Positions 6,440 to 64,000 of a stretch of DNA of 64,000 nucleotides are shown here, one piece after another. The notes beneath the pieces are model-generated. The model was given only the letters and a program-made list of their open reading frames with translations, was not told where the DNA came from and made no database searches. This DNA comes from Cyanobacteria bacterium UBA6446 (GTDB lineage: Bacteria; Cyanobacteriota; Vampirovibrionia; Gastranaerophilales; Gastranaerophilaceae). The DNA lies in assembly GCA_002438405.1 (NCBI GenBank), contig DJOE01000004.1:4492-68491 (forward strand), read 5' to 3'. Position 1 is the stretch's first letter; every line of letters begins with the position of its first letter. Made by a program: the position numbers and the translations under genes.

Positions 6440-9040
6440 TTATGCAGCTTTTTTATTATCTATTGCTGCAGCGACCTTTTGTCTTGATTGGTGCATATAC
6501 ATGTAAATACCACCTGCAATAGCCAATGTTCCAACTGCAATAGCAAGAATCATTTTAACCGGTCTAGATTTAGATTGTTTTAGAACTTTTTCTAAATCTT
6601 CCTTATATTCTCCAATTACACCCATTACACGGTTCATAGGCTTTTTATTTCTAGCTTCCCATCCTTTATCTGTTTCTAAAATCGTATCTAAGTAAACCCT
6701 GTTTGCAGATTTGCCGAAATTGTATTCGCCGTTATTGTGCCAATCCACAAGCTCTTCAATATTTTTCTTAGATTTTGCAATATATAAATCTTTATGATTA
6801 GTATATTCATCAATCATTTGCTTGAAAATATCAGCAACTTGCGGAGCTTGGTGGTTAACACGAGCATCATCAATTTCTTTTGCAGAATTTGCCCAACTCA
6901 AACCGTAACGTTCAGGTCTTCCCTCAACAACATCTTTAGTCAAAAATCCGTTTTTAGGATTTGTATAATCTACCGGACCACCAGTCTTAGTTGAACCATA
7001 AGGAGTTCCGGCGATTTTACATTCAATAGGTGTAATTCCGTACATTTCACGTCTTGAAGTAAATAACCCATAATGAGAACAACCTGTAAGTCTATTGGGA
7101 GTAAATCCATCAACATACATAATATTGTTTTTATATTTGCCACCGTCTAAAGCCCAAATAGTTTCTAAATCTTTTTTAACAGCTTTGTAATCGTCTGCAT
7201 CTTTATTCCAAGGACCTGCACCTAGCAAAACTTTTACTTTTTTCTTGGTATCTTCCGGAATATCTTTTCTCGTTAAGAAATCCAAATACCCCTTAGTGGT
7301 TATAGGGAAACCTTTTTGCTCATCTGGACGACCAAAACCAAAGACTAAAATTTCACCATCTTTGATTGGAGATAAATAGCCCATTACATTGTGACCGTCT
7401 TGAATTTGACCTTTATTAAAGAACAATTCATTCAATGCATCTTGTCCTTTTTCACCCGCTTTCCAGATTAAATCAGTTAACCAACGAGCATTTTTCTCTT
7501 TAGCGGCAATAACTTCTTCAATATTTTGAGCCTTAAAATCATATTTGAAAGGAGTATAACCAGTTGCAGCTTCTTTTGTTAAGCCATTACCACCACGGCC
7601 AAAGTTTGCATCTTGAACATCAAATGCCATATTTGCAGGAGTAACACCATTACCAACGGATTTTGTCTTGATTTTGGCAAAATCTTCCGTCAAGAATTTA
7701 GCTGCATCTGGAGTTTCCGGAGATTTCATTTCTTTATCAAAAGTATGAGAAACTGTACCAACAGAAATATTGTCCGGATTTACTCGAGAAGATGAAATCC
7801 CAACTTTCAAGATGTTATAAGTCCCAGCACCATCTCTAAATGGAGCTACCATAGGATCAATTACAGAGTGTGCGATAGCTCTTTCTCTTGGAGTTAAAGC
7901 TTCTGAATCAAGTCCATGTTGTTTTGCTTTTTGCAAGATATCAAAATATGGAGAATTTTTTAATGCAACGGCATCACTTTCATCTCCAACAACAGCCAAA
8001 AACTTCATCGGGTCAGAAGTCATACCTTGATAATTTCTTCCGGTATTGTGGTCAATAATATGAGCCTTAACACCATTTACCGCTGAATCACCGGCTGCAG
8101 ACATATTTGCAATATGATTTCCATAAGTGTTTGCAACTCTATCGTGGCACAACACACTTGCAGGATCAAAGAAACCAAATTCTTCAGTATTCATCTGTTT
8201 ATGAATAGAATTTGCCAAGGCTTTCATACCATCAGAATTGACAATTTCTGCTTCAAAAGGAACATTTCCCCAACAATCATATGAATAAGGTTTTGAAGCT
8301 CTTGCTAATTGAGGTGTATAAATAAAGTAGTTAGGTTGTCCTACCAATCTGTTATATGACGGATTTTTATCGGCAATTTTAAACAAACGATAAGGAATTT
8401 TATCAACTTCACCTAATTTTGAATCGGACAAATGAGAAATTTCACCCTTGACACTAGTTGGTTCAATTACACAATATCTTGACATTGCATCTGGTCCACT
8501 TCCATTTGGACGACTTTGAATTACATAACTTATTTCATCTAAAGAAACATTATTTTTCTTGGCAACAGATTCAATATCTTCACCTAATTCTGCGCTATAA
8601 AAATATTTCGCAGGCATGGTGTCATTAGCCTTAGTTGCATTTAATTCAGAAGATGGAATTCCCTTGTGAATTAAGAATTTATAACCACCTTTTGGATTAT
8701 TATATTCCCAAAAAGTCATAAAGCTTCGTGCATCTACACTTTTCTCTGCTCTTTCTCCGTTTGGCATTTTTACATTAACTTTTTCGTGCTTTCTTAAACT
8801 TGTAGGAAGTTCATAACCAACAACACCTTCACCGCCTTGAGATGCCTCCGGAAGTCCTAACCCCGAATTTTCAGGAGTAATTGAAGCAACTTGCCACATA
8901 TTTTTTCCTGTAAAAGACAATCGAACAAAATTTGACCTTGACATTGATTGAACTTGATTTGATGAATTAACCCCACTAGAATGATATCCACGTTTTGCAC
9001 CCCTTGCAATAGGATAATTTTGAACTAAATCTACACGCAT
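6440..9040 (-). CDS. large glycogen/starch-synthase-like (GT5-type) glycosyltransferase with a C-terminal membrane anchor
   Basis: The layout matches glycogen synthase as I remember it. There is an N-terminal 'ITPENSGLGLPEASQGGEGVVGYELPTSL' (compare 'EV.P..KTGGLADVVGALP.AL'). Further along come 'CHDRVAN', 'IIDHN', 'NILKVGI', 'GFGRPDEQKGF' and 'KVLLGAGPW'. The C-terminal core is 'FTSRREMYGITPIECKIAGTPYGSTKTGGPVDY'. The last ~30 aa form a TM helix (MILAIAVGTLAIAGGIYMYM). An AGGA RBS precedes the ATG. Confidence 0.65.
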   Translation of the reverse strand: MRVDLVQNYPIARGAKRGYHSSGVNSSNQVQSMSRSNFVRLSFTGKNMWQVASITPENSGLGLPEASQGGEGVVGYELPTSLRKHEKVNVKMPNGERAEKSVDARSFMTFWEYNNPKGGYKFLIHKGIPSSELNATKANDTMPAKYFYSAELGEDIESVAKKNNVSLDEISYVIQSRPNGSGPDAMSRYCVIEPTSVKGEISHLSDSKLGEVDKIPYRLFKIADKNPSYNRLVGQPNYFIYTPQLARASKPYSYDCWGNVPFEAEIVNSDGMKALANSIHKQMNTEEFGFFDPASVLCHDRVANTYGNHIANMSAAGDSAVNGVKAHIIDHNTGRNYQGMTSDPMKFLAVVGDESDAVALKNSPYFDILQKAKQHGLDSEALTPRERAIAHSVIDPMVAPFRDGAGTYNILKVGISSSRVNPDNISVGTVSHTFDKEMKSPETPDAAKFLTEDFAKIKTKSVGNGVTPANMAFDVQDANFGRGGNGLTKEAATGYTPFKYDFKAQNIEEVIAAKEKNARWLTDLIWKAGEKGQDALNELFFNKGQIQDGHNVMGYLSPIKDGEILVFGFGRPDEQKGFPITTKGYLDFLTRKDIPEDTKKKVKVLLGAGPWNKDADDYKAVKKDLETIWALDGGKYKNNIMYVDGFTPNRLTGCSHYGLFTSRREMYGITPIECKIAGTPYGSTKTGGPVDYTNPKNGFLTKDVVEGRPERYGLSWANSAKEIDDARVNHQAPQVADIFKQMIDEYTNHKDLYIAKSKKNIEELVDWHNNGEYNFGKSANRVYLDTILETDKGWEARNKKPMNRVMGVIGEYKEDLEKVLKQSKSRPVKMILAIAVGTLAIAGGIYMYMHQSRQKVAAAIDNKKAA

Positions 9041-9182: not shown

Positions 9183-11693
9183 CTAATTTGCAGCAGGTTC
9201 TTCAACCTGATCAGCTTTTTTAGTTTTCTTTGGCTTAGTAGCTTTTTCAAAGGAAATTTTACCATCTACAAGAGTGACTTTAATAGTATCACCTTTTGTA
9301 TATTTACCTGATAGAATTTCTTCTGCCAAACTATCTTCCATTTTTCTTTGGATTAAACGTCTTAATGGTCTTGCACCATAAGCTTCAGAATAACCACATT
9401 CAGCCAAATGATCTTTAACTTCATCAGATACTTCAATGTTAAGTTCTTTTTCAGCTAAACGTTTGAACAAGTCTTTCAACATCAAATCAACAATTTGTCT
9501 GATTTCTTCTTTTGACAAGTGAGAGAATACAATTGTTTCATCGATTCTGTTCAAGAATTCCGGTCTGAATGCCTTCTTCATCTCTTCAGAAACAGTTTCT
9601 TTAAGTTTTTCGTACTTGCTCTTAGATTCATCTTCTGCTGTTGTAAATCCAAGTTTTGAAGTATTTGTAATCATACTTGCACCAACATTAGATGTCATAA
9701 TAATAACAGTATTCTTAAAGCTGATATGACGGCCTTTTGAATCAGTTAATCTACCATCATCTAAGATTTGTAACATGATATTGAATACATCTGGGTGAGC
9801 TTTCTCAATTTCATCAAAAAGAACAACAGAATAAGGTTTCTTTCTAACAAGTTCTGACAAATGTCCACCATCATCATATCCAACATATCCAGGAGGTGAA
9901 CCGATAAGTTTTGCAGTTGAATGTTTTTCCATAAATTCTGACATATCAACTCTTATCATATTATCTTCAGAACCAAACATTGCTTCAGCTAAAGCTTTTG
10001 CAAGTTCAGTTTTACCAACACCGGTTGGACCACAGAAGATGAAACTACCGATTGGTCTATTTGGAGCTTTCAAACCAACTCTTGCACGTCTAATTGCTTT
10101 AGAAATAGCAACAATAGCATCATTTTGACCAATTACACGTTTGTGTAAAGTCTCTTCCAATTTAAGAAGTCTTTCACTTTCGCCCTCTGTCAACTTAGTA
10201 ACAGGAACACCTGTCATCATTGCAACTACTTCTGCAACATTTTCAGCTGTAACAGTTGGCTTATTAGCTTCGTGTTCATCTCTCCATTTTGCTGAAACTT
10301 CTCTGATTTTATCTCTCAAATCAGCTTCATCATCTCTTAATTGAGATGCGGTTTCAAATTCTTGATTTCTAATTGCATCTTCTTTTTCTTTAATTAAAGA
10401 TTTCAATTGTTTTTCAAGTTCTTTGGCTTCCGGACATAAATTGGAAGCTTTCAATCTAACTTTTGAACTTGCTTCATCGATTACGTCAATTGCTTTATCT
10501 GGTAAAAATCTATCATTAATATATTTGCTAGACATTTTAACAGCAGCAACTATTGCATCATCTGAAATAATCAACTTATGGTGTTCTTCATATTTTGGTT
10601 TCAAACCTTTGATAATTTCGATTGATTCTTCAATTGATGGTTCATCAATCATTACAGGTTGGAAACGTCTTTCTAATGCAGGGTCTTTTTCAATATATTT
10701 TCTATATTCATCAGATGTTGTAGCACCAATAACTTGAATTTCGCCTCTAGATAAAGCAGGTTTCAAAATATTAGCAGCATCAATAGCACCTTCTGCAGCA
10801 CCCGCACCAATCAATGTATGCATTTCGTCAATTACAAGAATAATATTTCCGGCTTGACGAATTTCGTCCATGATTTTTTTCAATCTTTCTTCAAATTCAC
10901 CACGGTATTTAGTACCGGCAACTAAAAGCCCCATATCTAATTGAATAACTTTTTTGCCGTCCAAAATATCTGGAACTTCAGCATTAACAATTCTAATTGC
11001 AAGACCCTCTGCTACTGCAGTTTTACCAACCCCAGGTTCTCCCAAAAGAACAGGGTTATTTTTTGTACGTCTTGCAAGAATTTGAATAACACGCTCAATT
11101 TCTTTTTCTCTACCGACAACAGGATCTAAACGCAACTCTTGAGCAGCAAGAGTTAAATCTCTACCAAATTCATCTAAGCTTGGAGTTTTTGTTTTTCCAC
11201 CTGTTGAAGATGATGATGTTGAAGATGAACTACTACCACCTGCAGTTGCTTGTGGCTTTGATTCACCTAACATTTTAATTACATTACTTCTTACTTTATT
11301 AAGGTCAACACCCAAATTTTCAAGAACTCTAGCTGCAACGCCTTCACCCTCACGGATTAAACCCAACAAAAGGTGTTCTGTTCCTATATAGTTATGACCT
11401 AATTGTCTTGCTTCGTCCCAAGATAATTCAAGAACTCGTTTTGCACGAGGAGTGAAAGGAATTTCTACTGCAACAAACCCAGATCCTCGACCGATAATCT
11501 TTTCAACTTCGGCCCTAGCATCTTTTAGGTTTACTCCCATAGATTTAAGAGTTTTTGCAGCAACTCCGGTACCTTCACCAATTAAGCCAAGTAAAACTTG
11601 TTCTGTTCCAACAAAGTTATGACCTAATCTTCGAGCTTCTTCTTGAGCAAGCATAATTACTTTTATTGCTTTTTCTGTAAAACGTTCGAACAT
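9183..11693 (-). CDS. clpC: ATP-dependent Clp protease ATP-binding subunit ClpC
   Basis: The N-terminus '[47 protein letters not shown]' is the cyanobacterial/plastid ClpC signature. The ORF has two Clp_N repeats and two AAA+ modules ([16 protein letters not shown]) plus a UVR-like middle region. Confidence 0.95.
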
Positions 11694-13624: not shown

Positions 13625-14014
13625 TTATAATTTATCAATCATATCATTTTTAGCTATTTCTGAATTAACCTTACTTGCAATATTATTTGCATTTTTACAA
13701 ACTGATTCAATAAATTTTACAGGTTTATTCAAAATATAGGATAAAAATTCTTTTTTAGTTTGTTTTTGAAAACTGCTCCTTGGATATTTTGATTTTATAT
13801 CTGCAGCAAGTCTATTAGATTTATCTAAGGAATACAAAGAAATATCAACTTCTTTATTCCTTTTTTGTTCACTAAATAATTTTTGTAATTTTTCAACATC
13901 ATCACAAGTTTTAATTCGCTTTTTCAAAACATTTTTAGCGCCATCAGACAGATTAACAGCACCAAAGCTTTGTTGGTTTGATTGTGGGGTAATATTATAA
14001 TAAACTTTCATCAT
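13625..14014 (-). CDS. hypothetical protein with an N-terminal 'SFGA' motif
   Basis: 129-aa ORF. The N-terminus 'MMKVYYNITPQSNQQSFGAVN' resembles the recurrent N-terminal motif described in the findings. Confidence 0.45.
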   Translation of the reverse strand: MMKVYYNITPQSNQQSFGAVNLSDGAKNVLKKRIKTCDDVEKLQKLFSEQKRNKEVDISLYSLDKSNRLAADIKSKYPRSSFQKQTKKEFLSYILNKPVKFIESVCKNANNIASKVNSEIAKNDMIDKL

Positions 14015-25539: not shown

Positions 25540-25956
25540 TTATTTATTTGAAATAAATCTTTGAACAATTTTGACCAATTCCGGAGAATTATTTTTATCT
25601 AGAGATTCTTCAATTTTTACCGGAGTATTATTTAATCTAAAAATATCAAAAGTTGCGTGTTTGTCATTTCTAATTATATCTAATTCTGCTTGTTTACCGA
25701 ATTTAATTTCTCTAATACTATAATTTGTTTTGCCAATTGTACCTACAATAAGTCCTAAACCATTATTTTTTCTGGTTTTAGATATATTTTGAAATGCATT
25801 ATTTACAAGTTTTTCAACATCTGGAGTTTTTGAAGTAAATGTTATAGAATCTCCGGTATTTGCATCTCTATATATCGGTGTAGATTTCTTTTTACCACAA
25901 CAATTTATACTAAATAAATTAGAATATACAGGGGTATTTGTAATTTTTGTAATCAT
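25540..25956 (-). CDS. hypothetical protein with an N-terminal 'ITFTS' motif
   Basis: 138-aa ORF with N-terminus 'MITKITNTPVYSN...GDSITFTSKT'. No family was recognised. Confidence 0.45.
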   Translation of the reverse strand: MITKITNTPVYSNLFSINCCGKKKSTPIYRDANTGDSITFTSKTPDVEKLVNNAFQNISKTRKNNGLGLIVGTIGKTNYSIREIKFGKQAELDIIRNDKHATFDIFRLNNTPVKIEESLDKNNSPELVKIVQRFISNK

Positions 25957-29519: not shown

Positions 29520-29849
29520 ATGAGAATTACTAAAATAAGCCCCAATTTCACAGCAGAACAAATTAATAAAAAGAATCAAACAGATTATCTAAGCTTGTTT
29601 CACGAAAAGACAAAAAATTCTGCAGATATGACAGACACAATAGTTGTTCCTAGAACCATATTTAAAGGTTATTTAGGAATTATGACAGGAACAACATTAG
29701 TAACTCTCGGCTCTATTGCAAGCAAACACCCAAAACTAGGAAAAACATTAACAACAGCTGGATTATTAACGTCATTATACGGAACTTGGGCTTTTGTAAG
29801 ACCATACATTATCAGAGAGAGCAAAGGTGTTGAAACATCTAAAAAATAA
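29520..29849 (+). CDS. small membrane protein with an N-terminal 'MRITKISPNFTA' motif
   Basis: 109 aa with two predicted TM segments ('YLGIMTGTTLVTLGSIA', 'LTTAGLLTSLYGTWAFV'). It begins 13 nt after the paralog pair. Confidence 0.5.
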   Translation: MRITKISPNFTAEQINKKNQTDYLSLFHEKTKNSADMTDTIVVPRTIFKGYLGIMTGTTLVTLGSIASKHPKLGKTLTTAGLLTSLYGTWAFVRPYIIRESKGVETSKK

Positions 29850-31564: not shown

Positions 31565-31999
31565 ATGATTATTAATTTTTATACATACCCCAATAATTCA
31601 TTAACTTTTATTGCTAATGAAAAAACATTTATGATGCTTAAACCAGATGCTTACAAAAGGCACTTAGATAAAACGATACTTAATGCCCTTACCCAAGATA
31701 AAGATTTAAAAATTACAAAAGAATGGGAGGGAATTGCCCCTAGAGAAAAGGTAGAAAAGAATTGGGAAGACAAAAAAGGGAAAAACTTTTTTAAATCGTG
31801 GATGGATTTTATGACATCAGGAAAAATCAAAGCAATGATTGTTGAAGGCGATAATGCGATCAGCAAAGTTCTAGAATTCAAAAAGAAAATTCGTGCGAAA
31901 TTTGCACCAAATGAAAAGAGAGAAAACCTAGTTCACAGCTCAGACGACCTCCAATCTGCAAATAAAGAAATCCATAATTTCTTTGACACAAAAATATAA
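31565..31999 (+). CDS. divergent nucleoside-diphosphate-kinase-like protein
   Basis: 'EKTFMMLKPDAYKR' matches the NDK 'ERTF.MIKPD' motif. 'NLVHSSD' aligns with the catalytic-His motif 'N.IHGSD', and 'SGKIKAMIVEGDNAI' with 'SGPVVAMVWEG.N'. An AAGGA RBS is present. Confidence 0.6.
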   Translation: MIINFYTYPNNSLTFIANEKTFMMLKPDAYKRHLDKTILNALTQDKDLKITKEWEGIAPREKVEKNWEDKKGKNFFKSWMDFMTSGKIKAMIVEGDNAISKVLEFKKKIRAKFAPNEKRENLVHSSDDLQSANKEIHNFFDTKI

Positions 32000-49071: not shown

Positions 49072-49225
49072 TTATCCTATATTCAAAATATACCACAATA
49101 AAAAACTATTAAAAAGAGTAAAAAAAGATAAAAAAGTGTAAAGTTTATGCCCTTTTCTAGCAAATTTAATTTTTATCTGCTTTAAAATAGAATAATTGAT
49201 AAATACAGAAATAAAAGGATATGAT

Positions 49226-51568
49226 ATGAAAATTACAGCAACCCAACATTTAACCCCGATAAATACTTATTTTTATAATAATAAAAAAATCCACAATAAA
49301 ACTAATCAAAATGCTACAAATCCACAAATAAGTTATACAAACGTACATGCTTATCAAGATTTTGGAATTTCATTTACAGGTAGAACTCCAGAAAATTTCT
49401 ATGAACAAGACTTTAATAGAAACAACATGCCTCAATCAATGAAAGAATATTTAGACTATGATTACGAAACAAGACAACATATACCACCAGAACAAATGAT
49501 GAAAGAAGTTTTTAAATATATCGACTTGGCAGACAATTTTGAAGACGTAAAAAATGTTTACCCCAATGAAGATTTATTCAAAAACTTACACGAAAATAAA
49601 TCAAGAAATATCTCCAGTGTTTTGTACGAAATTAAAACAGCTAAAGAAATGTCAGATGAACCATTATTCAAAGATGGTAGTGATAATTTCGGAATGTATT
49701 TACTAAAGAAAATTTACACTGAGGGTAAAACAATTAAAGAAATAAACAAAGATTTCTACACAAAAGACTTAAATAATGAATACAAAGGAATTATTACAAA
49801 ACCAATTACAGATAAAACAACTGCAAACTATGGTATTAAATTTCCAAAACAAGCTTTTTGGAATTCATTCATCGCAACAAGAGATGAATATAGAAAGTTC
49901 TTCGTAACTCTTCCTAAAAATACAACAAATCCTGCCGTTCATTTACCGAAATCAAATAAAGCAGAACAAACTGAAAATAAAGCTCCAATTGAAAGAATAA
50001 AAGCACCTAGAAAATATACAATTCCAGCATATAAAAAGAAACAATTGACAGATGACATCAAGTCTTCTGCAATGTCAAACACAGATGTTGAGAAAAAAAT
50101 CAGAAAAAGATTTGCAAAAGACGACCCTGAAGCTTCATTTATTGTGAAATATTTAAGCCCGATAATGACAGTTGCAGCAGAAAGAGCCCATTTGTCAGAA
50201 GATTTAAAATTCTTCGCTGAAGCAGAACGAATTAATGGTCACAAAGGCGATGAAGAATTTATGCTAAAACGTTATTGGAACAGAAACCCAATAATGAAAA
50301 ATATTTATGCTCATGCTATTACAGATACAATTGATATGTTTGAAGATATTTATGGAGCAGGGGGAAATCTTCCAATAAACACAGATTTAGAAGTCGTTAC
50401 TCCAGACACTCCAAACAAAAAAATTGTTGACCACGTAAATTCAGAATATGCGCACCTACTTGATTATACTCAAACAATCTTTCCTGAAAGAGAAGTAAAA
50501 TATGCCGAGCACTACAAAAATCAAGAAAAATGGGAAAAATATTTCAATGAAAAATATGGTGATATAGAACAAGATCAAGTTGAAGAAATTAAAACTCCAA
50601 CTCCGATAGAAAAAGAAGAAGAAACATCACCTCTTATAGAAGATAAAGAATTTGACGAAGACAGTTTTTCTATAGACAAAGTTAATGAGGCTTTTGACGA
50701 AAAAATTAAAGAGGGAACAGATTATCTTCCAAGTTCTCTTTCAAAAAAATATTTTCAATTTATGAATGAGAATGCGGATTTGGCTTTCAAATTGAAAGTT
50801 GCTAATCTTCCAGAAGATTGCTCTGCAGAAGATATTAGAGAAATATATCGTACTGACGGATCTCCTGATTATATAGATGATCTCAATATTAGGTTCTATG
50901 CTGAATATAGCAATGAAATAGGAGCTAATAATTGTGCTTTAGATGAACTTTTAACAACTTATAATAAAAATCATTTAAAATATCTTGATGAAGGAAAAAT
51001 CTATCAATATGGACCAGAACTTAAAGAGTTTGCTATACGCCACAAAAAAGAACATGATTCTTTATACTCAAAATACCTAAAGCCAATGACAGATAGAGAA
51101 CGAAATCTTACATCTCTTGCTTTTATGAATGAGATTGATAATTATAAAAATGATAAAAATGTTGATAGAGCTACAAATGCAATAATTTTGATGTTCCAAG
51201 ATGTTGCGAAATTAAATCATAACCAAAGACGAAAAATAAAAGATTTTATAAGAGAAGTAATCCCAGATTCTACCAAAATAATGTTGGATAAAAAAGCAGA
51301 TAAAAAAGATAAATATGACAGATTCGTATATTTTATGCCGGGATTAATAAATGAATGCATATTTAATCAAGGTTATTTACCATTCCTTGTTAATAAAGAA
51401 ATAGTTGATAAATATACTCCTCTTATGAATCAGTTTGATATTGAAAAAATAAAAAGAATGGAATCTCAACTACCTCCAGCAGGAAGAGAATTTTACAATG
51501 CATCAAATGAAAAAATCAAAACAGGATATTACTGCGAAACAGTTGAACTTCCAACATTAAAGAAATAA
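49226..51568 (+). CDS. large hypothetical protein with an N-terminal 'ISFTG' motif
   Basis: 780 aa from the ATG (AAGGA RBS upstream); the ORF track starts at a TTG at 49196. It has no TM segment and no recognised domain. The N-terminus is 'MKITATQHLTPIN...DFGISFTGRT'. Confidence 0.55.
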   Translation: MKITATQHLTPINTYFYNNKKIHNKTNQNATNPQISYTNVHAYQDFGISFTGRTPENFYEQDFNRNNMPQSMKEYLDYDYETRQHIPPEQMMKEVFKYIDLADNFEDVKNVYPNEDLFKNLHENKSRNISSVLYEIKTAKEMSDEPLFKDGSDNFGMYLLKKIYTEGKTIKEINKDFYTKDLNNEYKGIITKPITDKTTANYGIKFPKQAFWNSFIATRDEYRKFFVTLPKNTTNPAVHLPKSNKAEQTENKAPIERIKAPRKYTIPAYKKKQLTDDIKSSAMSNTDVEKKIRKRFAKDDPEASFIVKYLSPIMTVAAERAHLSEDLKFFAEAERINGHKGDEEFMLKRYWNRNPIMKNIYAHAITDTIDMFEDIYGAGGNLPINTDLEVVTPDTPNKKIVDHVNSEYAHLLDYTQTIFPEREVKYAEHYKNQEKWEKYFNEKYGDIEQDQVEEIKTPTPIEKEEETSPLIEDKEFDEDSFSIDKVNEAFDEKIKEGTDYLPSSLSKKYFQFMNENADLAFKLKVANLPEDCSAEDIREIYRTDGSPDYIDDLNIRFYAEYSNEIGANNCALDELLTTYNKNHLKYLDEGKIYQYGPELKEFAIRHKKEHDSLYSKYLKPMTDRERNLTSLAFMNEIDNYKNDKNVDRATNAIILMFQDVAKLNHNQRRKIKDFIREVIPDSTKIMLDKKADKKDKYDRFVYFMPGLINECIFNQGYLPFLVNKEIVDKYTPLMNQFDIEKIKRMESQLPPAGREFYNASNEKIKTGYYCETVELPTLKK

Positions 51569-54584: not shown

Positions 54585-54658
54585 GGCCTCGTAGCTCAGT
54601 AGGATAGAGCAGTGGTTTCCTAAACCAAAGATCACGCGTTCGACTCGCGTCGGGGCCA
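54585..54658 (+). tRNA. tRNA-Arg (anticodon CCU)
   Basis: Hand fold: acceptor GGCCTCG/CGGGGCC, D arm GCTC..GAGC, anticodon stem GTGGT/ACCAA with loop TTCCTAA, T arm ACGCG-TTCGACT-CGCGT, discriminator A. Confidence 0.9.
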
Positions 54659-54818: not shown

Positions 54819-55460
54819 ATGATTAGATGGTGTTTACCAACCAATATATTTTCTAATACTTTTGCTTACAATGCACTACCAAAAGTTAGCGCATCTAATC
54901 CATTTAGCACAAGTATTTTTAACTCTTTTGTTCCTACAAACTTTGCATCAATGTCTTTGATGAGTTTTCCAGTATTTCCAAGTTTCAACTTTGGGAAGTT
55001 ACTACTAAGCACTCCGTCTTATTTGTCAAAAGGAACTTCAATCTTAGGTCGAAACCAAAACGCATCATTATGGAAAAGACTAGGATATTCAGCCCAAAAA
55101 GGCTGGGAACTAGCAAAAAAAGCAGTATCCAGTGTTGTTGGATTTACAGGCAAATGCGCAAGATATGTAAAAAATGCAATCGCAAAAACAGGTTTAGGCA
55201 AATACGAATATGGAAACGCTTGCGATATGGTTTCAATAATGAGAAGAAATAAAAACTTCAAAGAAATCAATCCAAATGGGGTAGATTTGAAAAAACTTCC
55301 TGCAGGTTGTGTTCTAGTTTATGGAAAAGGTGTTGCAGGATATAGCAAAAAATACGGTCACACTGAAATTACAACAGGAAGCGGTAAAGCAGTATCTGAT
55401 GGTGTAACTCAAAACTTACACAGAAGACCAACAGCAATATTTATGCCGGTTGCCGCATAA
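54819..55460 (+). CDS. hypothetical protein with a C-terminal CHAP/NlpC-P60-like Cys-His domain
   Basis: 'GFTGKCARYVKNAI' (catalytic Cys context) and 'PAGCVLVYG......YGHTEI' (His context) follow the CHAP-domain pattern. The N-terminal ~70 aa are Ser/Phe/Pro-rich without a classical signal peptide. An AAGGGGA RBS lies upstream. Confidence 0.55.
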   Translation: MIRWCLPTNIFSNTFAYNALPKVSASNPFSTSIFNSFVPTNFASMSLMSFPVFPSFNFGKLLLSTPSYLSKGTSILGRNQNASLWKRLGYSAQKGWELAKKAVSSVVGFTGKCARYVKNAIAKTGLGKYEYGNACDMVSIMRRNKNFKEINPNGVDLKKLPAGCVLVYGKGVAGYSKKYGHTEITTGSGKAVSDGVTQNLHRRPTAIFMPVAA

Positions 55461-55462
55461 TT

Positions 55463-55536
55463 CGTGCCTGGGGGGAATCAAACCCCCGACCTTGAGCTTC
55501 GGAAACTCACGCTCTATTCTCCTGAGCTACAGACAC
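55463..55536 (-). tRNA. tRNA-Arg (anticodon CCG)
   Basis: The reverse complement is GTGTCTGTAGCTCAGGAGAATAGAGCGTGAGTTTCCGAAGCTCAAGGTCGGGGGTTTGATTCCCCCCAGGCACG. It has acceptor GTGTCTG/CAGGCAC, anticodon loop TTCCGAA and T arm GGGGG/CCCCC. Confidence 0.85.
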
Positions 55537-55567
55537 GTAGTATTCTTATCTATAATATTAACAATAA

Positions 55568-57890: not shown

Positions 57891-59018
57891 TTATTTCCCA
57901 ACACAAATACCATAAGTCCCACCCATTACTGTACTCTTAATATTATCCAGTTCCTCATCGTCATATACAACTTTTGCCATAAAAGGCTTAGAACCTTTTG
58001 TAGATGACCAATACATCAATTGAGGAATATCTAAATTCTCTTTTTTAGCTTTTGAGAGTATAGATTTTAAAGTCGCAGCATCTGGCATGGACATATCAAG
58101 TCCATCACAGGCTTTTTTTGCTCCAGCCCACTTATTCGGAGATCCAGTAAAAAAAGATGGCAGTGTTGACCAACCTGGATCATATTTTTCAATATCAGGG
58201 TCATCTAATGTTAGACCATCAAATGATGGTAAAACATATACACAACCAATACCAGAAACCTCAACACCTGCACAACCTTTACTGAATTTTGCTACTTTAA
58301 AACTTCTTATATCATATTGTTTACCATTACGTGCTTCGCTATTTGGACCTTTAAACCCATTCACGTCCATTACAAAGTCAATTGGCGCAGTTACACTTGT
58401 TGTGTATGCAAATTTCTTAGTTCTACCAAAACCAATTGGTAAATCTGCAAAGCTTGGGGTTACTGTATCACCATCACCTATTATTCCTGCATTTGGATTG
58501 TAAGTCATAATTAGTGTTGCACCATCAGCTAAAATTATACCAACATTATCACTTTTGTTGTCTTTTAAATTTAGGTTCTTTCCTGTTTTTGCTTTTGATA
58601 CGTCATAGGTTTCACCATCTGTTGTGGTTACTGTTTTTGTCGGCCAACAATCTGCAATATGCGCTGCATCACATCGTGTACTTATTTTTATATATTTTGA
58701 AAATTCATCTACAAATTCATCTGTACTTGCATAAGTTCTTTCTAGTCCTCCATCTGCTCTCATTAAATCCATGGATTTTGTAATCTTTTGAGCTAAGTTT
58801 GCTTGTGCTTCTGAATTACTACGTTCTGCAATATTTTTTAGCAATGTTGGCATTGTTAGTGCTGCTACCACTCCAATTACTCCGAGGGTGATTAGAACTT
58901 CGGCAAGGGTGAAAGCAAATTTTTTATTCGGAGTTACACCGCTGAAAACCTCTCTACAAGCGGGTTTTAGATTACCCCCCCCCCCCTTGAAAACCGTTCT
59001 ATGACTGCGTTTTGACAT
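57891..59018 (-). CDS. type IV pilin-like protein with a large C-terminal domain (DUF1566/Lcl-like end)
   Basis: 'KFAFTLAEVLITLGVIGVVAALTMPTL' is the prepilin signal plus helix. The ATG at 59018 has an AGGAAG RBS 8 nt upstream. The C-terminus 'KWAGAKKACDGLDMSMPDAATLKSIL....LMYWSST....F.AKVVY.......K....GGTYGICV' resembles the DUF1566 pattern. Confidence 0.75.
   Translation of the reverse strand: MSKRSHRTVFKGGGGNLKPACREVFSGVTPNKKFAFTLAEVLITLGVIGVVAALTMPTLLKNIAERSNSEAQANLAQKITKSMDLMRADGGLERTYASTDEFVDEFSKYIKISTRCDAAHIADCWPTKTVTTTDGETYDVSKAKTGKNLNLKDNKSDNVGIILADGATLIMTYNPNAGIIGDGDTVTPSFADLPIGFGRTKKFAYTTSVTAPIDFVMDVNGFKGPNSEARNGKQYDIRSFKVAKFSKGCAGVEVSGIGCVYVLPSFDGLTLDDPDIEKYDPGWSTLPSFFTGSPNKWAGAKKACDGLDMSMPDAATLKSILSKAKKENLDIPQLMYWSSTKGSKPFMAKVVYDDEELDNIKSTVMGGTYGICVGK
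58975..58986 (-). repeat. G12 homopolymer (C12 on the plus strand) within the pilin-like ORF leader
   Basis: Direct count: 'attaCCCCCC CCCCCCttga'. On the coding strand it encodes K-G-G-G-G-N at codons 11-16. Confidence 0.95.
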
Positions 59019-59871: not shown

Positions 59872-61269
59872 TTATTTGTTATCACGAGCAACAACCACAG
59901 TGAAATCTGTATTTGCACAACGGTAATTCATTGGGTCATACACGAACTGTCTTGATTTAACTTCTGGAACTTGTTTTTTCAAGTTTGCATAATAATCAAT
60001 TGTAACATATTTTGAATGTGCAATAAATTGTGAATGTGTTGAATTTGAAGTTCCTGTACACATAACATTTATACCATCAGCTTCAAGAGCTTTTTTCAAT
60101 CTTTTAGCTTCGTCAGCTTTATCAGCAGAACTCATAATACTTGCAGTATAAGTTTCTTTTACACCGTCCGGTTTTTCACGGTAAATAAGTCTATCCACAA
60201 CTTCTTGAGTTTTTTCCGGATCTAAAATCCAATAACTGATATATCCATGTTTATTTGGAGAACCTGGAAGCATTGAAATTTCAATATTATCCATATCAAA
60301 ATGTTTTGCAAGAGCTGCATATTGAGTCATTTCGTAAGGTGACATATCCGTTTTCACATATTTATTTGCAACAGAAACGATTTCAGGAATTTTTACAATT
60401 GTTTCAGGTTTTTGCAAATCTGCCAACAAACCACGTAAGAACCATTGTTGACGTTGAGTCCTACCGATATCACCCATTGCATCGTGTCTAAATCTCAAAT
60501 ATTCGACAGCATCTTTATCTGTCAAATGGTGCTTACCTTTTGTGAAGTTGATGTGTAAATGTCCGGCATTATCGTTGTAGTGCATATTTTTTTCAACATA
60601 AATATCAACACCGCCTAAAGCCTTAACAATAGCTCTAACCCCCTCATCGTGGAACATTATGTATTTATCAACATGAACACCTAGAGTATCTTCAACAGTT
60701 TTAATCGTCATACCCACACCACCGATAGCATGAGCTGCATTAATCTTTTGAATTCCCATACCTTTAGGCAAATAAACTTTACTATCTCGAGGAATAGAAA
60801 TCGCATTTACCGTTTTAGTTTTTGGGTCTATATTTAATAAAATCATTGTATCAGTTCTTGTACCAACCCACAAATCAGAATCTGCACCATTTGAATCAAC
60901 ACCTAAAAGCAATATATTTTGACGTTTTGGTCCAAATGGAAGATTAAATTCAGGCTTATCCTTTGAATTATTGCCAAGAGATAATTTAGCAAACAACTTA
61001 GAAATAAAGGAATTTTGACCTAATTTACTATCAATAAATGATTGATTATTTGCAAATAACAAAATTCCTGCAATTGCCATAAAGAAGACAATTGTCATCA
61101 CTGTTAATACTTTTCTAAAAGAAGTATCATTTTTAGGTGGATAACTCTCAAAAGGGTTATCAGCTGCACCATTTGAATATCTTCGAGGCTTTCTTGCTCG
61201 TCTTTGACTATTATTTGGTCTTCTACGTTCTCTATTATTATCTCTTTCTCTCATTCTATTCATTCTCAA
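59872..61269 (-). CDS. LytR-CpsA-Psr (LCP) family protein
   Basis: It has a basic N-terminus and a TM anchor. 'NILLLGVDS......RTDTMILLNIDPKTKTVNAISIPRDSKVYLP' and 'KINAAHAIGG' are LCP core motifs. Confidence 0.85.
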   Translation of the reverse strand: MRMNRMRERDNNRERRRPNNSQRRARKPRRYSNGAADNPFESYPPKNDTSFRKVLTVMTIVFFMAIAGILLFANNQSFIDSKLGQNSFISKLFAKLSLGNNSKDKPEFNLPFGPKRQNILLLGVDSNGADSDLWVGTRTDTMILLNIDPKTKTVNAISIPRDSKVYLPKGMGIQKINAAHAIGGVGMTIKTVEDTLGVHVDKYIMFHDEGVRAIVKALGGVDIYVEKNMHYNDNAGHLHINFTKGKHHLTDKDAVEYLRFRHDAMGDIGRTQRQQWFLRGLLADLQKPETIVKIPEIVSVANKYVKTDMSPYEMTQYAALAKHFDMDNIEISMLPGSPNKHGYISYWILDPEKTQEVVDRLIYREKPDGVKETYTASIMSSADKADEAKRLKKALEADGINVMCTGTSNSTHSQFIAHSKYVTIDYYANLKKQVPEVKSRQFVYDPMNYRCANTDFTVVVARDNK

Positions 61270-61717: not shown

Positions 61718-63424
61718 ATGATTAATAAAGTTGAATTAGGTAGTGTAAAAAATAATAGAACCCCGAAATATGTCAGTAAAATTAACAAGGGGCAAACCAG
61801 TTTCACAGGACTTGGAAGTCTTGCGCTTAAAGGTATTCAAAAGTGTGAAGAAAGTCCAATGATTAACGTTGCCGTTTTGGATTTATCTACAGCAATTTTG
61901 CCTAGAACATTCTTTGAAACATTTATTGGATCTAAGAAAAAAGACGAAAACGGAAACGAAACTCATGAAAGAAAATTAAACATCATGGGTGGTTTTGAAG
62001 CCTTTAGAAGAGAAGGTTCAGGACTACTTATCAACTGTATGATTCCAAGTTTCATCGTAATGGGTGCAGCAAAATTATTGAACAAACCTATTATGGGAGC
62101 TTTCAACAAATCGAACCTTACAAAATCTTGGGCAAATAGTGACACAATTAACTGTGTAAGCAAATATTATAAAAATGCGCAAGGAACTTCTAAAGAAGAC
62201 CGTGTATTTGAAACGTTAAAATCAATGTTTGATGACATTGAAGGCGTAGATGGTGATATCGGCAAAGGTGGTTTGAAAAGATTTAAAGAAATCTTTGCAA
62301 ATGATGAAGAATATACTAATCATTTAAGAAAAATGGCTAAAAACATTGTCAGTGAAAAACCTGAAAAGGGTTATACCACTGAAATGTACAAATACTTGGT
62401 CGGAAAATCCGGCATAGCTGAAAATATTAAATTTTCAAAAGATTCAGGATTTTTCTCTAGCTCTTTAGGTCATTTATGTGATAGTGTCGGAGATGTTTTG
62501 CATGGTGCATCTAAAGAAGGCATTCTTGCTCCAAATGCAAACATTGCAGCAACTGAAAGTCGTTTTGCAAAATATTTATCAAAAGCAAATCATTTAGTTA
62601 ATGCTAAGAGTATTGCTGGTTTGGGAATAATTATACCTCTAGCTGTTGCTGCTCAACCGATTAACAGATGGATTACCCACAAATTATCTGGTAAAAAAGG
62701 AGCTCCAATCTACAACGATGATAAAGATAGAATCTTAACACCAGAAGAGAAAAAGCAATTAACCGCAAGAAAATTCATTGACGTTCCTTTAATGTGGGGA
62801 GTTGCAGCATTATCAATGCTTATGGATAGACCAAGCTTGAAAATGTTCCAATTTAAAAACATCTTCCCTACAATGGATCAAGCAAGAATTATTTCAGCAG
62901 CAACATTCTCTAGTCGTTTAGCGGCTGCTGAAGATAAAAACGAATTAAATGAAAATACAATCAGAGATATTGCAACATTCTCTAGTTTCTATTTCTTAGG
63001 AGATTATGCAGCAAAAGGAATTGCAACATTCTTAGAAAAACATAACAAAGATGGAATTAAATTAATTAACAGATTAAAAGATGCAGATCCAAATGATAAT
63101 ATAATGAAAAAATTCTGGAACTGGGCAAAACATACCAAAATGAAATCAACAGATGAATTAAGTGCTATTGGTAATGAAACTTTAAGAGCAAAAGCTAAAA
63201 ACCTTAGAGCAATTTGTCAAGCAGGGAACTTAGCATTCTCTTTATTGTCACTTGGTATATTCATTCCTCTTTATACAAGAACCCAAACAAACAAAAAAGA
63301 AAAGATTAAAAAAGAACAAGCTATAAATACCCCAGCTCAAAGTTCAACAACAGGTACAACCACATCATTTACCCAAAACTTGATGAAAGATAAAACAAAA
63401 GCATTTAAAGCATTTTTAGGTTAA
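61718..63424 (+). CDS. hypothetical multi-pass membrane protein with an N-terminal 'TSFTG' motif (paralog 1)
   Basis: 568 aa with about 5-6 hydrophobic segments. 'SFTGLGSLALKG...VAVLDLSTAILPRT....FRREGSG' parallels the next ORF. Confidence 0.55.
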   Translation: MINKVELGSVKNNRTPKYVSKINKGQTSFTGLGSLALKGIQKCEESPMINVAVLDLSTAILPRTFFETFIGSKKKDENGNETHERKLNIMGGFEAFRREGSGLLINCMIPSFIVMGAAKLLNKPIMGAFNKSNLTKSWANSDTINCVSKYYKNAQGTSKEDRVFETLKSMFDDIEGVDGDIGKGGLKRFKEIFANDEEYTNHLRKMAKNIVSEKPEKGYTTEMYKYLVGKSGIAENIKFSKDSGFFSSSLGHLCDSVGDVLHGASKEGILAPNANIAATESRFAKYLSKANHLVNAKSIAGLGIIIPLAVAAQPINRWITHKLSGKKGAPIYNDDKDRILTPEEKKQLTARKFIDVPLMWGVAALSMLMDRPSLKMFQFKNIFPTMDQARIISAATFSSRLAAAEDKNELNENTIRDIATFSSFYFLGDYAAKGIATFLEKHNKDGIKLINRLKDADPNDNIMKKFWNWAKHTKMKSTDELSAIGNETLRAKAKNLRAICQAGNLAFSLLSLGIFIPLYTRTQTNKKEKIKKEQAINTPAQSSTTGTTTSFTQNLMKDKTKAFKAFLG

Positions 63425-63454: not shown

Positions 63455-64000
63455 ATGAAAATTGAACAAAACGTCGGACAGTTAAAACAAATACCAACAG
63501 GATTCACAAACAATAAAATAAAAAAACAAAATCCAAACTTCACAGGTGGAGTTGATATGGCTCTAAGATTTTTGGATACAAACCAAGCATGGGGCGCTTG
63601 CGCCGTTGACTTAGGGTGTATGGTTCTGCCAAGAACAATTACAGACTTTAGTCGTGGAAAAGATGCAGGTATGGAAACTGCAAGACGTGAAGGAACAGGT
63701 ACAGTTAACCACTCATTAGTTGGTGCTTATGGTTCTTTAGCTGGTTTAGCCCTAGCTGCCGGAATTAACAAAGCATACAACCTTGCAGATAACGATATCA
63801 AAGCTAGTTCAATCTTTGCAGATTCAGAAACTCTTGATTTGCACGGAAAAATTTATGATGCAAAACTAAAAGCATCTAAAATAGATTCTTCAATCAATCC
63901 ATTAAAAGAATATTTGAAAGAAACTCTTAAAAACTATGAAGTTCTAAATCCTAATGACAACGGCAAATGGGTAGTTTTAAAAGATGAAAAAATTGAAAAG
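63455..64000 (+). CDS. hypothetical protein, paralog 2 (5' part; runs off the window end)
   Basis: This ORF is not in the ORF track. It is open from the ATG at 63455 to the window end (182 codons). 'NPNFTGGVDMALRF...CAVDLGCMVLPRT....ARREGTG' parallels 61718-63424. Confidence 0.5.
   Translation, partial: MKIEQNVGQLKQIPTGFTNNKIKKQNPNFTGGVDMALRFLDTNQAWGACAVDLGCMVLPRTITDFSRGKDAGMETARREGTGTVNHSLVGAYGSLAGLALAAGINKAYNLADNDIKASSIFADSETLDLHGKIYDAKLKASKIDSSINPLKEYLKETLKNYEVLNPNDNGKWVVLKDEKIEK

Follow-up and report, generated by a model that had tools for sequence, protein, structure and literature searches.

The stretch of DNA analyzed here (the window; 64,000 nt, 31% G+C, about 55 genes) belongs to a genome of the Gastranaerophilales (Melainabacteria), a non-photosynthetic gut lineage of cyanobacteria that is common in human and animal guts and is not known to have a cultured gut representative; the proteins specific to this lineage are mostly unannotated. 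Eight proteins encoded in the window begin with the same two-part N-terminal element, referred to below as the tag: a short start element and a Phe-centered core, separated by a spacer of variable length. The tag has the form of an N-terminal targeting leader, and a targeting function is what we infer from its sequence features. The tags of the window and the two largest tagged genes are as follows.

49226-51568, forward strand: 780-aa protein of unknown function, with more than 400 homologs, none of them annotated
49226-49381, forward strand: tag of the 780-aa protein; start MKITATQ, 40-aa spacer rich in Asn, Gln, Thr and Lys, core ISFTG (aa 48-52)
6440-9040, reverse strand: 866-aa GT5-like enzyme (predicted starch/glycogen-synthase fold) with a C-terminal hydrophobic helix
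8906-9040, reverse strand: tag of the GT5-like enzyme; start MRVDLVQ, spacer, core LSFTG (aa 41-45), two residues before predicted beta-strand 1
31565-31615, forward strand: tag of the NDK-like protein (gene 31565-31999); start MIINFYTY, core LTFIA, then the canonical NDK start EKTFMMLKPDA
61718-61810, forward strand: tag of a 568-aa membrane protein (gene 61718-63424); start MINKVEL, spacer, core TSFTG
63455-63547, forward strand: tag of the downstream paralog of the 568-aa protein (gene runs past the window end); start MKIEQNV, spacer, core PNFTG
29520-29555, forward strand: tag of a 109-aa protein with a hydrophobic hairpin (gene 29520-29849); start MRITKIS, core PNFTA, nearly no spacer
25831-25956, reverse strand: tag of a 138-aa protein (gene 25540-25956); start MITKITN, spacer, core ITFTS
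13958-14014, reverse strand: tag of a 129-aa protein (gene 13625-14014); start MMKVYYNI, core QSFGA

In general form, the tag consists of the start element M-[KR]-[IV]-x-x-[IV], often M-K-I-N-x-I-N, a variable spacer of 0-90 aa, and the core [IVLT]-[STN]-F-x-[GAS]. The leader spans the first 10-55 residues (up to about 95 in distant homologs of the GT5-like enzyme), and its second element stands 0-8 residues ahead of the folded domain. Anatomy and composition were described on 25 tags curated by eye. In this set the segment preceding the core is 2-47 residues long, Ile occupies position 3 in 16 tags and position 6 in 11, position 2 is mostly Lys, and the commonest residue at position 5 is Pro (5 tags); the core reads [ITVPL]-[SNT]-F-[TKGSNQ]-[GAS]. 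The spacer is rich in Asn, Gln and Thr and nearly devoid of acidic residues: relative to background, the segments preceding the core contain 2.9 times as much Asn and 2.1 times as much Gln, with Asp reduced to 0.37 and Glu to 0.11 of the background level. Both acidic residues have AT-rich codons (GAA for Glu, GAT for Asp), so that the nine-fold depletion of Glu is not accounted for by mutation bias. The core often precedes K/R-x-P, as in FTGRTP, FSGKIP, and FTSKTP, and the residues downstream of it differ widely among families. Repetition of the motif inside one tag was observed in P0285/P0286 and in the GT5-like protein of locus L092.

The original prediction proposed a shared N-terminal pattern on eight proteins lacking a hydrophobic signal peptide. 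All eight N-termini translate as quoted there and the motif coordinates are correct; no hydrophobic (h-) region lies ahead of the motif in any of the eight. The proteins were further described as otherwise unrelated, which overstates their independence. The 568-aa protein and its downstream neighbor are true paralogs (BLASTP E=1e-7), and the 109-aa protein is possibly related to them, through a marginal hh[LV]PRT stretch only (E=0.015). Thus, the window contains six or seven independent tagged families, not eight.

In the GTDB collection with one genome per species, 128 stretches contain homologs of the 780-aa protein; the best 80 of these 128, with flanks of up to 10 kb, were used (L001-L080), and the related loci sampled total about 1.7 Mb. 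In the window protein the SFTG motif occupies aa 49-52 (nt 49370-49381), and the true start is likely the ATG at 49226, not the upstream TTG at 49196. All 120 homologs among the matches listed start with M-[KRNQ]-[IV], continue with a spacer that is variable in both length and sequence, and then enter AY[QR]D[FY]N[IV][SN]F.GRTPE[ND]FY. In an alignment of 22 sequences, down to 37% identity, four positions (M1, Y43, F50, R53) do not vary, and two more (D45, G52) show at least 90% conservation. The motif codons of 61 homologs vary synonymously (Phe: TTT in 45 and TTC in 16; Gly: GGC in 23, GGA in 22, and GGT in 9; Ser from both of its codon families), and hence selection acts on the protein.

The rest of the 780-aa protein resembles nothing characterized in the libraries that were searched. 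Domains were sought in Pfam, NCBIfam, and PADLOC, and folds were assessed for two families with AlphaFold2 models compared by Foldseek to PDB. The 780-aa model is all-alpha, with a mean predicted local distance difference test score (pLDDT) of 77.5; Foldseek against PDB returned nothing below E=1, and a profile search of PDB sequences gave no meaningful match. NCBIfam and PADLOC yielded no match and Pfam no convincing one, only HSM3_N below threshold. In the window and in many related loci, the neighbors of the gene are those of a PfkB-type sugar kinase on one side and of polynucleotide phosphorylase on the other. In one species (L004, 10001-12334 and 12336-14831) the family is tandemly duplicated, with the tag in both copies.

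The second large family is that of the GT5-like enzyme, whose motif is found at nt 8906-8917. Its AlphaFold2 model (pLDDT 88) has a GT-B fold, and Foldseek ranks granule-bound starch synthases and GlgA highest, at E of about 1e-17 and a target TM-score of 0.75-0.78 (top matches 3vue, 6gnf, 6gng, and also 3d1j; over all of these, E=2e-17 to 1e-14, target TM-score 0.71-0.78). The Pfam Glycogen_syn model scores 16 bits against a cut-off of 27, the position of the K-T-G-G-L nucleotide-sugar motif reads Q-G-G-E-G, and the distant homolog P0340 matches Pfam Glyco_transf_5. By its model, the 866-aa enzyme has the GT5 fold; its membership in GT5 and its activity are putative. The 120 homologs among the matches listed start with MRV[ND]S[VI] and carry [IVL].[IL][ST]F[TG]G just before the first strand, and in an alignment of 55 sequences F43 does not vary, whereas R2 shows at least 90% conservation. 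Among 1.84 billion representative proteins, a profile search retrieved 208 relatives. In most of the full-length ones, down to E of about 1e-15, the start is retained and is followed by a spacer of 20-90 aa and the sequence [IVL][ST]F.[GS]..KN..Q; one subfamily with a different C-terminus is without the motif. A canonical, untagged GlgA-type GT5 enzyme of 482 aa is encoded on the same contig as the tagged GT5-like enzyme in L088.

The C-terminus of the GT5-like family (window 6440-6560; homologs P0121-P0240) consists of a predicted hydrophobic helix followed by a conserved end, ...[LIM][DN][KT][AV]A ('LDKAA'); a distant subfamily without the N-terminal motif ends in ...GNSKIYF. The C-terminal peptide may be a second signal. 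The GT5-like gene is located directly downstream of clpC in the window (clpC 9183-11693, GT5-like gene 6440-9040) and in L081, L084, L087, and L088; in L090, a more distant locus, about 6 kb separate clpC from the GT5-like gene, and the two are on opposite strands.

A third example is provided by the NDK-like protein (144 aa), which matches Pfam NDK PF00334 over residues 19-142 (E=1.8e-25; 89.8 bits, cut-off 27) and remains below the NCBIfam equivalog cut-offs, indicating a divergent subfamily. Its motif TFIA occupies aa 14-17. The protein has only nine close homologs; in each of them about 15-45 aa are added directly ahead of the canonical NDK start, and this extension ends in [STNV]F.[GAS] in eight of them and in NFTR in the remaining one. 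The original prediction rated this case as weak, an assessment that these homologs reverse. The canonical-type NDK P0250 is without the extension.

The remaining tags of the window are followed in fewer relatives. The motif of the 568-aa membrane protein (nt 61799-61810) is kept as [TSPIK][SK]F[TQ]G[LM]G in relatives from L008, L009, L013, L016, L021, and L048, and that of the downstream paralog (nt 63536-63547) as P[SN]FTG in L009 and L021. The 138-aa protein (TFTS at aa 39-42) has one homolog, in L081 (38% identity; L082 duplicates the same locus), that retains MITRITN...VTFTSK. For the 129-aa protein (SFGA at aa 16-19), the L081 gene at the corresponding position, between a helicase gene and serS, encodes a product beginning with MNIQITPISFSGG; the two are too diverged to be linked by tblastn. 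For the 109-aa protein (NFTA at aa 9-12) no relatives were recovered in the sampled loci. Loss of the motif from orthologs, which the original prediction had named as evidence against itself, is not what is seen: relatives of several families keep it.

About 17 further families in the related loci have tag-like N-termini, most of them without a Pfam match. By a rough count, the tag is present on 8 of the about 55 window genes and on about 7% of credible families in the loci. One tagged family is an adenylate kinase with a full P-loop, and untagged adenylate kinases occur in the same cluster. Another is a PqqL-like double M16 peptidase, in which likeness to the solved PqqL structure begins at residue 58; the tag sits at the end where the solved homologue begins, and Escherichia coli PqqL bears a signal peptide at its N-terminal end. 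Other tagged families comprise HNH-like proteins with tandem copies, several small soluble proteins, and single-pass and polytopic membrane proteins. Pfam, NCBIfam, and PADLOC have no model for the tags and nothing for most tagged proteins, the search for cluster 147 gave no PDB sequence match, and most tagged families are lineage-specific.

Several observations concern these families individually. The PqqL-like M16 peptidase of L064 (1-2494), whose N-terminal tag ends in ..TVFKG, also contains an internal KNVSFTGTKK about two-thirds along the fetched part, which could be a second copy of the motif or a chance occurrence. Some tagged genes form adjacent pairs, as in L034 (15136-16074 and 16090-16968, coiled-coil-like) and in L064 (16016-17377 and 17398-18738, HNH-like paralogs), which suggests local duplication of tagged cassettes. 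A membrane protein with an Arg-rich N-terminus, encoded at 59872-61269 on the reverse strand of the window and found also as cluster 24, has a conserved SSFRK just before a transmembrane helix; this sequence is core-like but has no small residue at +2, and the protein was not counted as tagged.

Across this set, two conserved islands around a free spacer were seen in the four families that could be examined in depth. The structure models place the tag outside the fold. In the 780-aa protein pLDDT is below 50 over residues 1-52, the motif lies at 48-52, and the fold starts at 53; in the GT5-like enzyme pLDDT is below 50 over residues 1-43, with the motif at 41-45 and strand 1 from 47. The tag is thus predicted to be a disordered leader that ends where the fold begins. 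Low pLDDT of this kind, which both models show as far as the motif, is typically displayed by linear recognition motifs and not by structural elements. Tagged proteins stand beside untagged housekeeping enzymes in three cases: adenylate kinase, NDK, and the GT5-like enzyme, with GlgA on the same contig. The idea of a portable N-terminal tag therefore held: it is a conserved motif behind a free spacer, predicted disordered, found on enzymes whose canonical forms are without it.

Two other origins were rejected. Mis-called starts do not account for the leaders, because ribosome-binding sites are found ahead of the ATGs (an AAGGA-like Shine-Dalgarno-type site lies 6-10 nt upstream in six of the eight window genes with a tag) and the Met that follows the motif in the window GT5-like protein is not conserved in its family. 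In addition, the NDK-like protein and the tagged adenylate kinase have no internal Met ahead of the first core strand, so that their extension must be translated. A cause at the RNA level was dismissed because the spacer is free in length and sequence, the motif codons vary synonymously, and Rfam finds only tRNAs in the window.

The N-terminal excess was assessed in several ways. Within the window, the regular expression of the original prediction matches 7 of 3480 N-terminal and 3 of 15019 internal positions, a 10-fold difference (Fisher P=6e-4) for a motif that was defined post hoc. An independent set was therefore formed from 1428 open reading frames (ORFs) of the 80 related loci and the window, clustered into 469 families with one vote each; the families of the finding itself were left out of the chance tests. 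Here the same exact expression is enriched 2.0-fold at N-termini (P=0.035), and replacement of Phe by Tyr or Leu, or reversal of the motif, gives no enrichment. A position-specific scoring matrix (PSSM) was trained solely on three families (780-aa, GT5-like, and 568-aa) and then applied to the 334 credible families that remained. Scores of 8 bits or more are reached by 5.7% of N-termini, compared with 2.4% of internal 70-aa windows (Fisher P=0.011, Poisson P=6e-4), and scores of 10 bits or more by 3.2 and 1.1%, respectively; across thresholds the excess is 2.4-3-fold, with Poisson P of about 0.001 and Fisher P of 0.01-0.02.

Looser patterns behave differently. When each family has one vote, no clear excess at N-termini is seen for the bare F.G, FTG, and FSG, and the loose expression [ILVFCT][STNKQH]F.[GA] has 19.2 matches compared to 14.0 +/- 3.1 in shuffled sequences, about 1.7 standard deviations (SD). 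An unsupervised search for three-residue gapped patterns, N-terminal against internal, did not place the motif at the top; signal-peptide patterns, transmembrane patterns, and spurious small ORFs made up most of its output, and it was uninformative. On the other hand, the features of the tag occur together. The core is associated with an M[KRNQ][ILV] start (odds ratio 6, P=0.0014), and an acid-poor, Asn- and Gln-rich upstream segment accompanies 21% of N-terminal core matches, 1% of internal ones, and 8.4% of all N-termini. The excess over internal and shuffled sequence on which the original prediction depends thus exists for the exact expression and the matrix, and is not clear for the bare motifs or for the loose expression against shuffles. 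The signature is real; its statistical weight is moderate and lies in the combination of features.

The tag matches none of the signals named in the original prediction, as was claimed there: there is no h-region, no twin arginine, no lipobox Cys, no G|FTLxE followed by a helix, and nothing C-terminal. The segments preceding the motif in the listed tags have no h-region of the Sec kind, as none of them attains nine hydrophobic residues within any stretch of 12, and a Sec-type start is present elsewhere in the window (44254). In the eight window tags no twin arginine precedes the Phe and no h-region follows it, as a Tat signal would demand. The tags of the 780-aa, GT5-like, and 568-aa families have no conserved Cys corresponding to a lipobox, and [STN]-F-x-[GAS] is not followed by the hydrophobic helix of a prepilin signal. 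A genuine pilin-type protein of the window (57891-59018, reverse strand) has an unusually long leader of about 34 aa, MSKRSHRTVFKGGGGNL...KKFA|FTLAEVLITLG; 14 more proteins of the FTLAEVLITLG type occur in 1.6 Mb of related loci, often with Ala, not Gly, at the expected cleavage site. No description of such a motif or signal in this lineage was found in the literature, and as far as we can tell the tag is undescribed so far.

Four kinds of N-terminal element are nevertheless worth comparing. Double-glycine leaders, which together with C39-peptidase ABC exporters are common in cyanobacteria, resemble the tag in having no h-region, in the small residue (Gly, Ala, or Ser) before the mature part, and in serving many unrelated cargos. 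However, the tag has no Gly at -2, no acidic residue at -8, and no hydrophobic ladder at -4/-7/-12; in the 25 curated tags the residue before the final small one is Thr (10), Lys (4), Gly (3), or Ser, Asn, Gln and others. The tagged cargo is 100-900 aa long and includes membrane proteins, whereas the typical cargo of these exporters is a peptide. No C39-peptidase exporter gene was noted among the window ORFs, most of which were not run against domain libraries.

Type III effector signals share with the tag an aliphatic residue or Pro at position 3 or 4, an acid-free first 12 residues, and a polar, disordered segment rich in hydroxylated residues; the first two features are empirical rules derived for effectors of Pseudomonas syringae. 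Both rules hold for 17 of 21 tagged families and for 12% of the other families without a signal peptide, a comparison that is partly circular as the tagged set was curated by eye. The type III signals contain no conserved motif, in contrast to the sharply conserved Phe motif of the tag. Plastid transit peptides and organelle presequences are likewise acid-poor, rich in hydroxylated and amide residues, disordered, and variable in length, and bear a Phe-Gly-type element: transit peptides have a semi-conserved FGLK motif, and those of glaucophytes and red algae an N-terminal Phe. Presequences also mark extra copies of housekeeping enzymes, and an M16 peptidase is found among the tagged proteins. 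Here, however, the host is a bacterium without a known internal compartment or import machinery, and the likeness is one of composition only.

The fourth case is that of extensions removed by the Prp protease, which cuts at Phe-Phe|Ala and thereby takes the N-terminal extension off ribosomal protein L27 and off the capsid and scaffold proteins of phage 80-alpha. These extensions are short, start with M-[LK]-hydrophobic, have a conserved Phe by a small residue, and are common to unrelated proteins in one host. They differ from the tag in their consensus, LNLQFF|A, in their length of about 9 aa, and in having no variable spacer. There is no L27 gene in the sampled DNA.

We favor, at somewhat less than even confidence, the reading that the tag is a Sec-independent sorting or export leader, possibly one read by a flagellar-type export gate. 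A shared cytoplasmic receptor would read the leader and route the protein into a Sec-independent pathway. Which receptor, and to which destination, is speculative; the candidate reader would be the flagellar-type III export gate (FlhB/FlhA/FliPQR with FliI). The Phe motif would dock in the same way as the gate recognition motif does in early flagellar subunits, after which the gate would be engaged by the hydrophobic N-terminus.

The comparison is suggested by the known signal of early flagellar subunits, which has two parts: small hydrophobic residues at the extreme N-terminus and a Phe-based gate recognition motif that binds FlhB(C); in FlgD, at least 19 residues are required between the two and about 24 are optimal (PMC8983047). 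In the tag, likewise, a spacer separates two short elements of a disordered N-terminus; the first is hydrophobic and lies within residues 2-6, and the second is centered on Phe, often after Ser (SSFLTLL in FlgD); there is no h-region, and the flagellar signal is uncleaved. As a family-level rule, small hydrophobic residues at the extreme N-terminus are present in 20 of the 21 tagged families. A full set of flagellar genes is reported for about 25% of Gastranaerophilales genomes, with the remaining ones retaining flhB, fliI, and flgG, for which a role in secretion has been postulated (bioRxiv 10.64898/2026.04.24.720558; PMC4040986).

Some hydrolases in the same genomes are relevant here. A CHAP-type hydrolase of the window (54819-55460), flanked by two tRNA-Arg genes (54585-54658 and 55462-55537), has no Sec signal peptide, and the same is true of the cell-wall hydrolases of cluster 19 (CHAP-type) and of L062 (18217-18912; M23-type). 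Their N-termini are acid-poor, of low complexity, and rich in Phe, Asn, Ser, Pro, and Tyr, with repeated SF.G-like units in the L062 protein; in L040 and L043 two CHAP-type genes flank the tagged adenylate kinase. As these CHAP and M23 hydrolases are without Sec signals, a Sec-independent route seems to be needed in these genomes anyway.

A number of observations weigh against export, and against the flagellar gate in particular. The known gate motif is F-x-x-x-hydrophobic, whereas the tag core is F-x-[GAS]: a conserved Gly at +2 is not part of the former, and the residue at +4 is hydrophobic in only about half of the tags. Of the 25 curated tags, 10 have a spacer that reaches the 19-residue minimum and 15 a shorter one; it is 0-9 residues in the NDK-like and 109-aa proteins and in clusters 33, 67, and 275, and near zero in the first four of these. 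Polytopic membrane proteins (the 568-aa protein, cluster 138) are odd cargo for type III export and would suit a cytoplasmic role. The tagged GT-B enzyme has a C-terminal hydrophobic helix, and its catalytic domain should need cytoplasmic nucleoside diphosphate sugar. A motif search of the window and of 1.7 Mb of loci detected no signatures of flagellin or rod proteins (FlgB/C/F/G); the gate genes themselves were not searched for. Finally, the enrichment is modest (2.4-3-fold), and a part of the list of tagged families was picked by eye.

The membrane proteins and the GT-B enzyme with its helix are explained better by a serious rival, to which we nevertheless give only tentative credence: the core may be a cytoplasmic short linear motif for docking or regulation, which tethers diverse proteins by a flexible N-terminal arm to a shared hub without any membrane being crossed. 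The hub itself can be guessed at with no greater assurance; a scaffold, a cytoskeletal or polar organizer, a chaperone or unfoldase such as ClpC, a condensate, or a storage granule would be candidates. Such docking agrees with the position of the tag on net-basic N-termini of polytopic and single-pass membrane proteins and on an enzyme expected in the cytoplasm, and with a motif in a disordered arm of free length, as is usual for docking motifs. The repeats within single tags suggest avidity, and the Asn- and Gln-rich, acid-poor spacers with aromatic residues resemble cohesive low-complexity domains. The GT5-like gene adjoins clpC in several species; however, this adjacency is broken in L090, and no candidate for the hub was found. 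A docking motif also leaves unexplained the conservation of residues 2-6, the tag position on the PqqL-like peptidase, and the existence of tagged copies of adenylate kinase, NDK, and a glycogen-synthase-like enzyme beside the canonical ones.

Two further explanations are less likely than either docking or sorting. The tag could be a propeptide or degron, with an endopeptidase cutting after F-x-G or before the Phe and so activating the protein or exposing the Phe for turnover by ClpS/Clp. The distance of 0-8 residues between the motif and the first structural element in NDK, adenylate kinase, and the GT5-like enzyme, the frequent K/R-x-P after the motif, and the precedent of Prp processing of L27 and phage proteins would all be in line with cleavage. 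We regard it as improbable, as no candidate peptidase was found, the residues after the motif vary widely between families, and removal of a tag from membrane proteins has no obvious purpose; in part it overlaps with the sorting leader, since leaders are often cleaved. Quite improbable, in our view, is the absence of any common function, the tag being then a product of Asn/Lys/Ile drift in an AT-rich genome (31% G+C), of MKI starts favored in translation, and of chance or family-specific F-x-G. The behavior of the bare F.G and FTG, the small deviation of the loose expression from shuffles (about 1.7 SD), the unsupervised ranking, and the 8.4% of all N-termini that are acid-poor and rich in Asn and Gln are what one would expect in that case. 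It does not account for a Phe that is invariant across deep divergence in two families, for the excess in the non-circular matrix test (2.4-3-fold, P of about 0.001-0.02), or for its specificity to Phe over Tyr or Leu and to the forward orientation. Nor does it explain the association of core, start, and composition, or the Glu depletion, which mutation bias fails to produce.

If the sorting leader is accepted, it may represent an undescribed sorting system in Gastranaerophilales, possibly in the wider Vampirovibrionia, with the two-part leader as an address label on about 5-15% of families; we consider this distinctly less likely than not. The cargo would then comprise a dedicated extra adenylate kinase, NDK, starch-synthase-like enzyme, and M16 peptidase, and the tagged set would be the proteome of a distinct destination, either the cell exterior, reached by a repurposed flagellar gate, or an unrecognized intracellular compartment or condensate, in bacteria that are the nearest non-photosynthetic kin of the plastid ancestor. 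If the core is instead a docking motif, the tag would still mark a large interaction hub that is now unknown.

A leader common to 5-15% of families would help to classify dozens of hypothetical proteins together and would predict a route for sorting or secretion that escapes current signal-peptide predictors. It also makes the partial flagellar gene set reportedly retained in these genomes amenable to a test, namely whether the tag load follows flhB and fliI. Gastranaerophilales are the sister group of photosynthetic cyanobacteria, and with this position an acid-poor, Phe-bearing targeting peptide would be of interest to students of the origin of plastid transit peptides.

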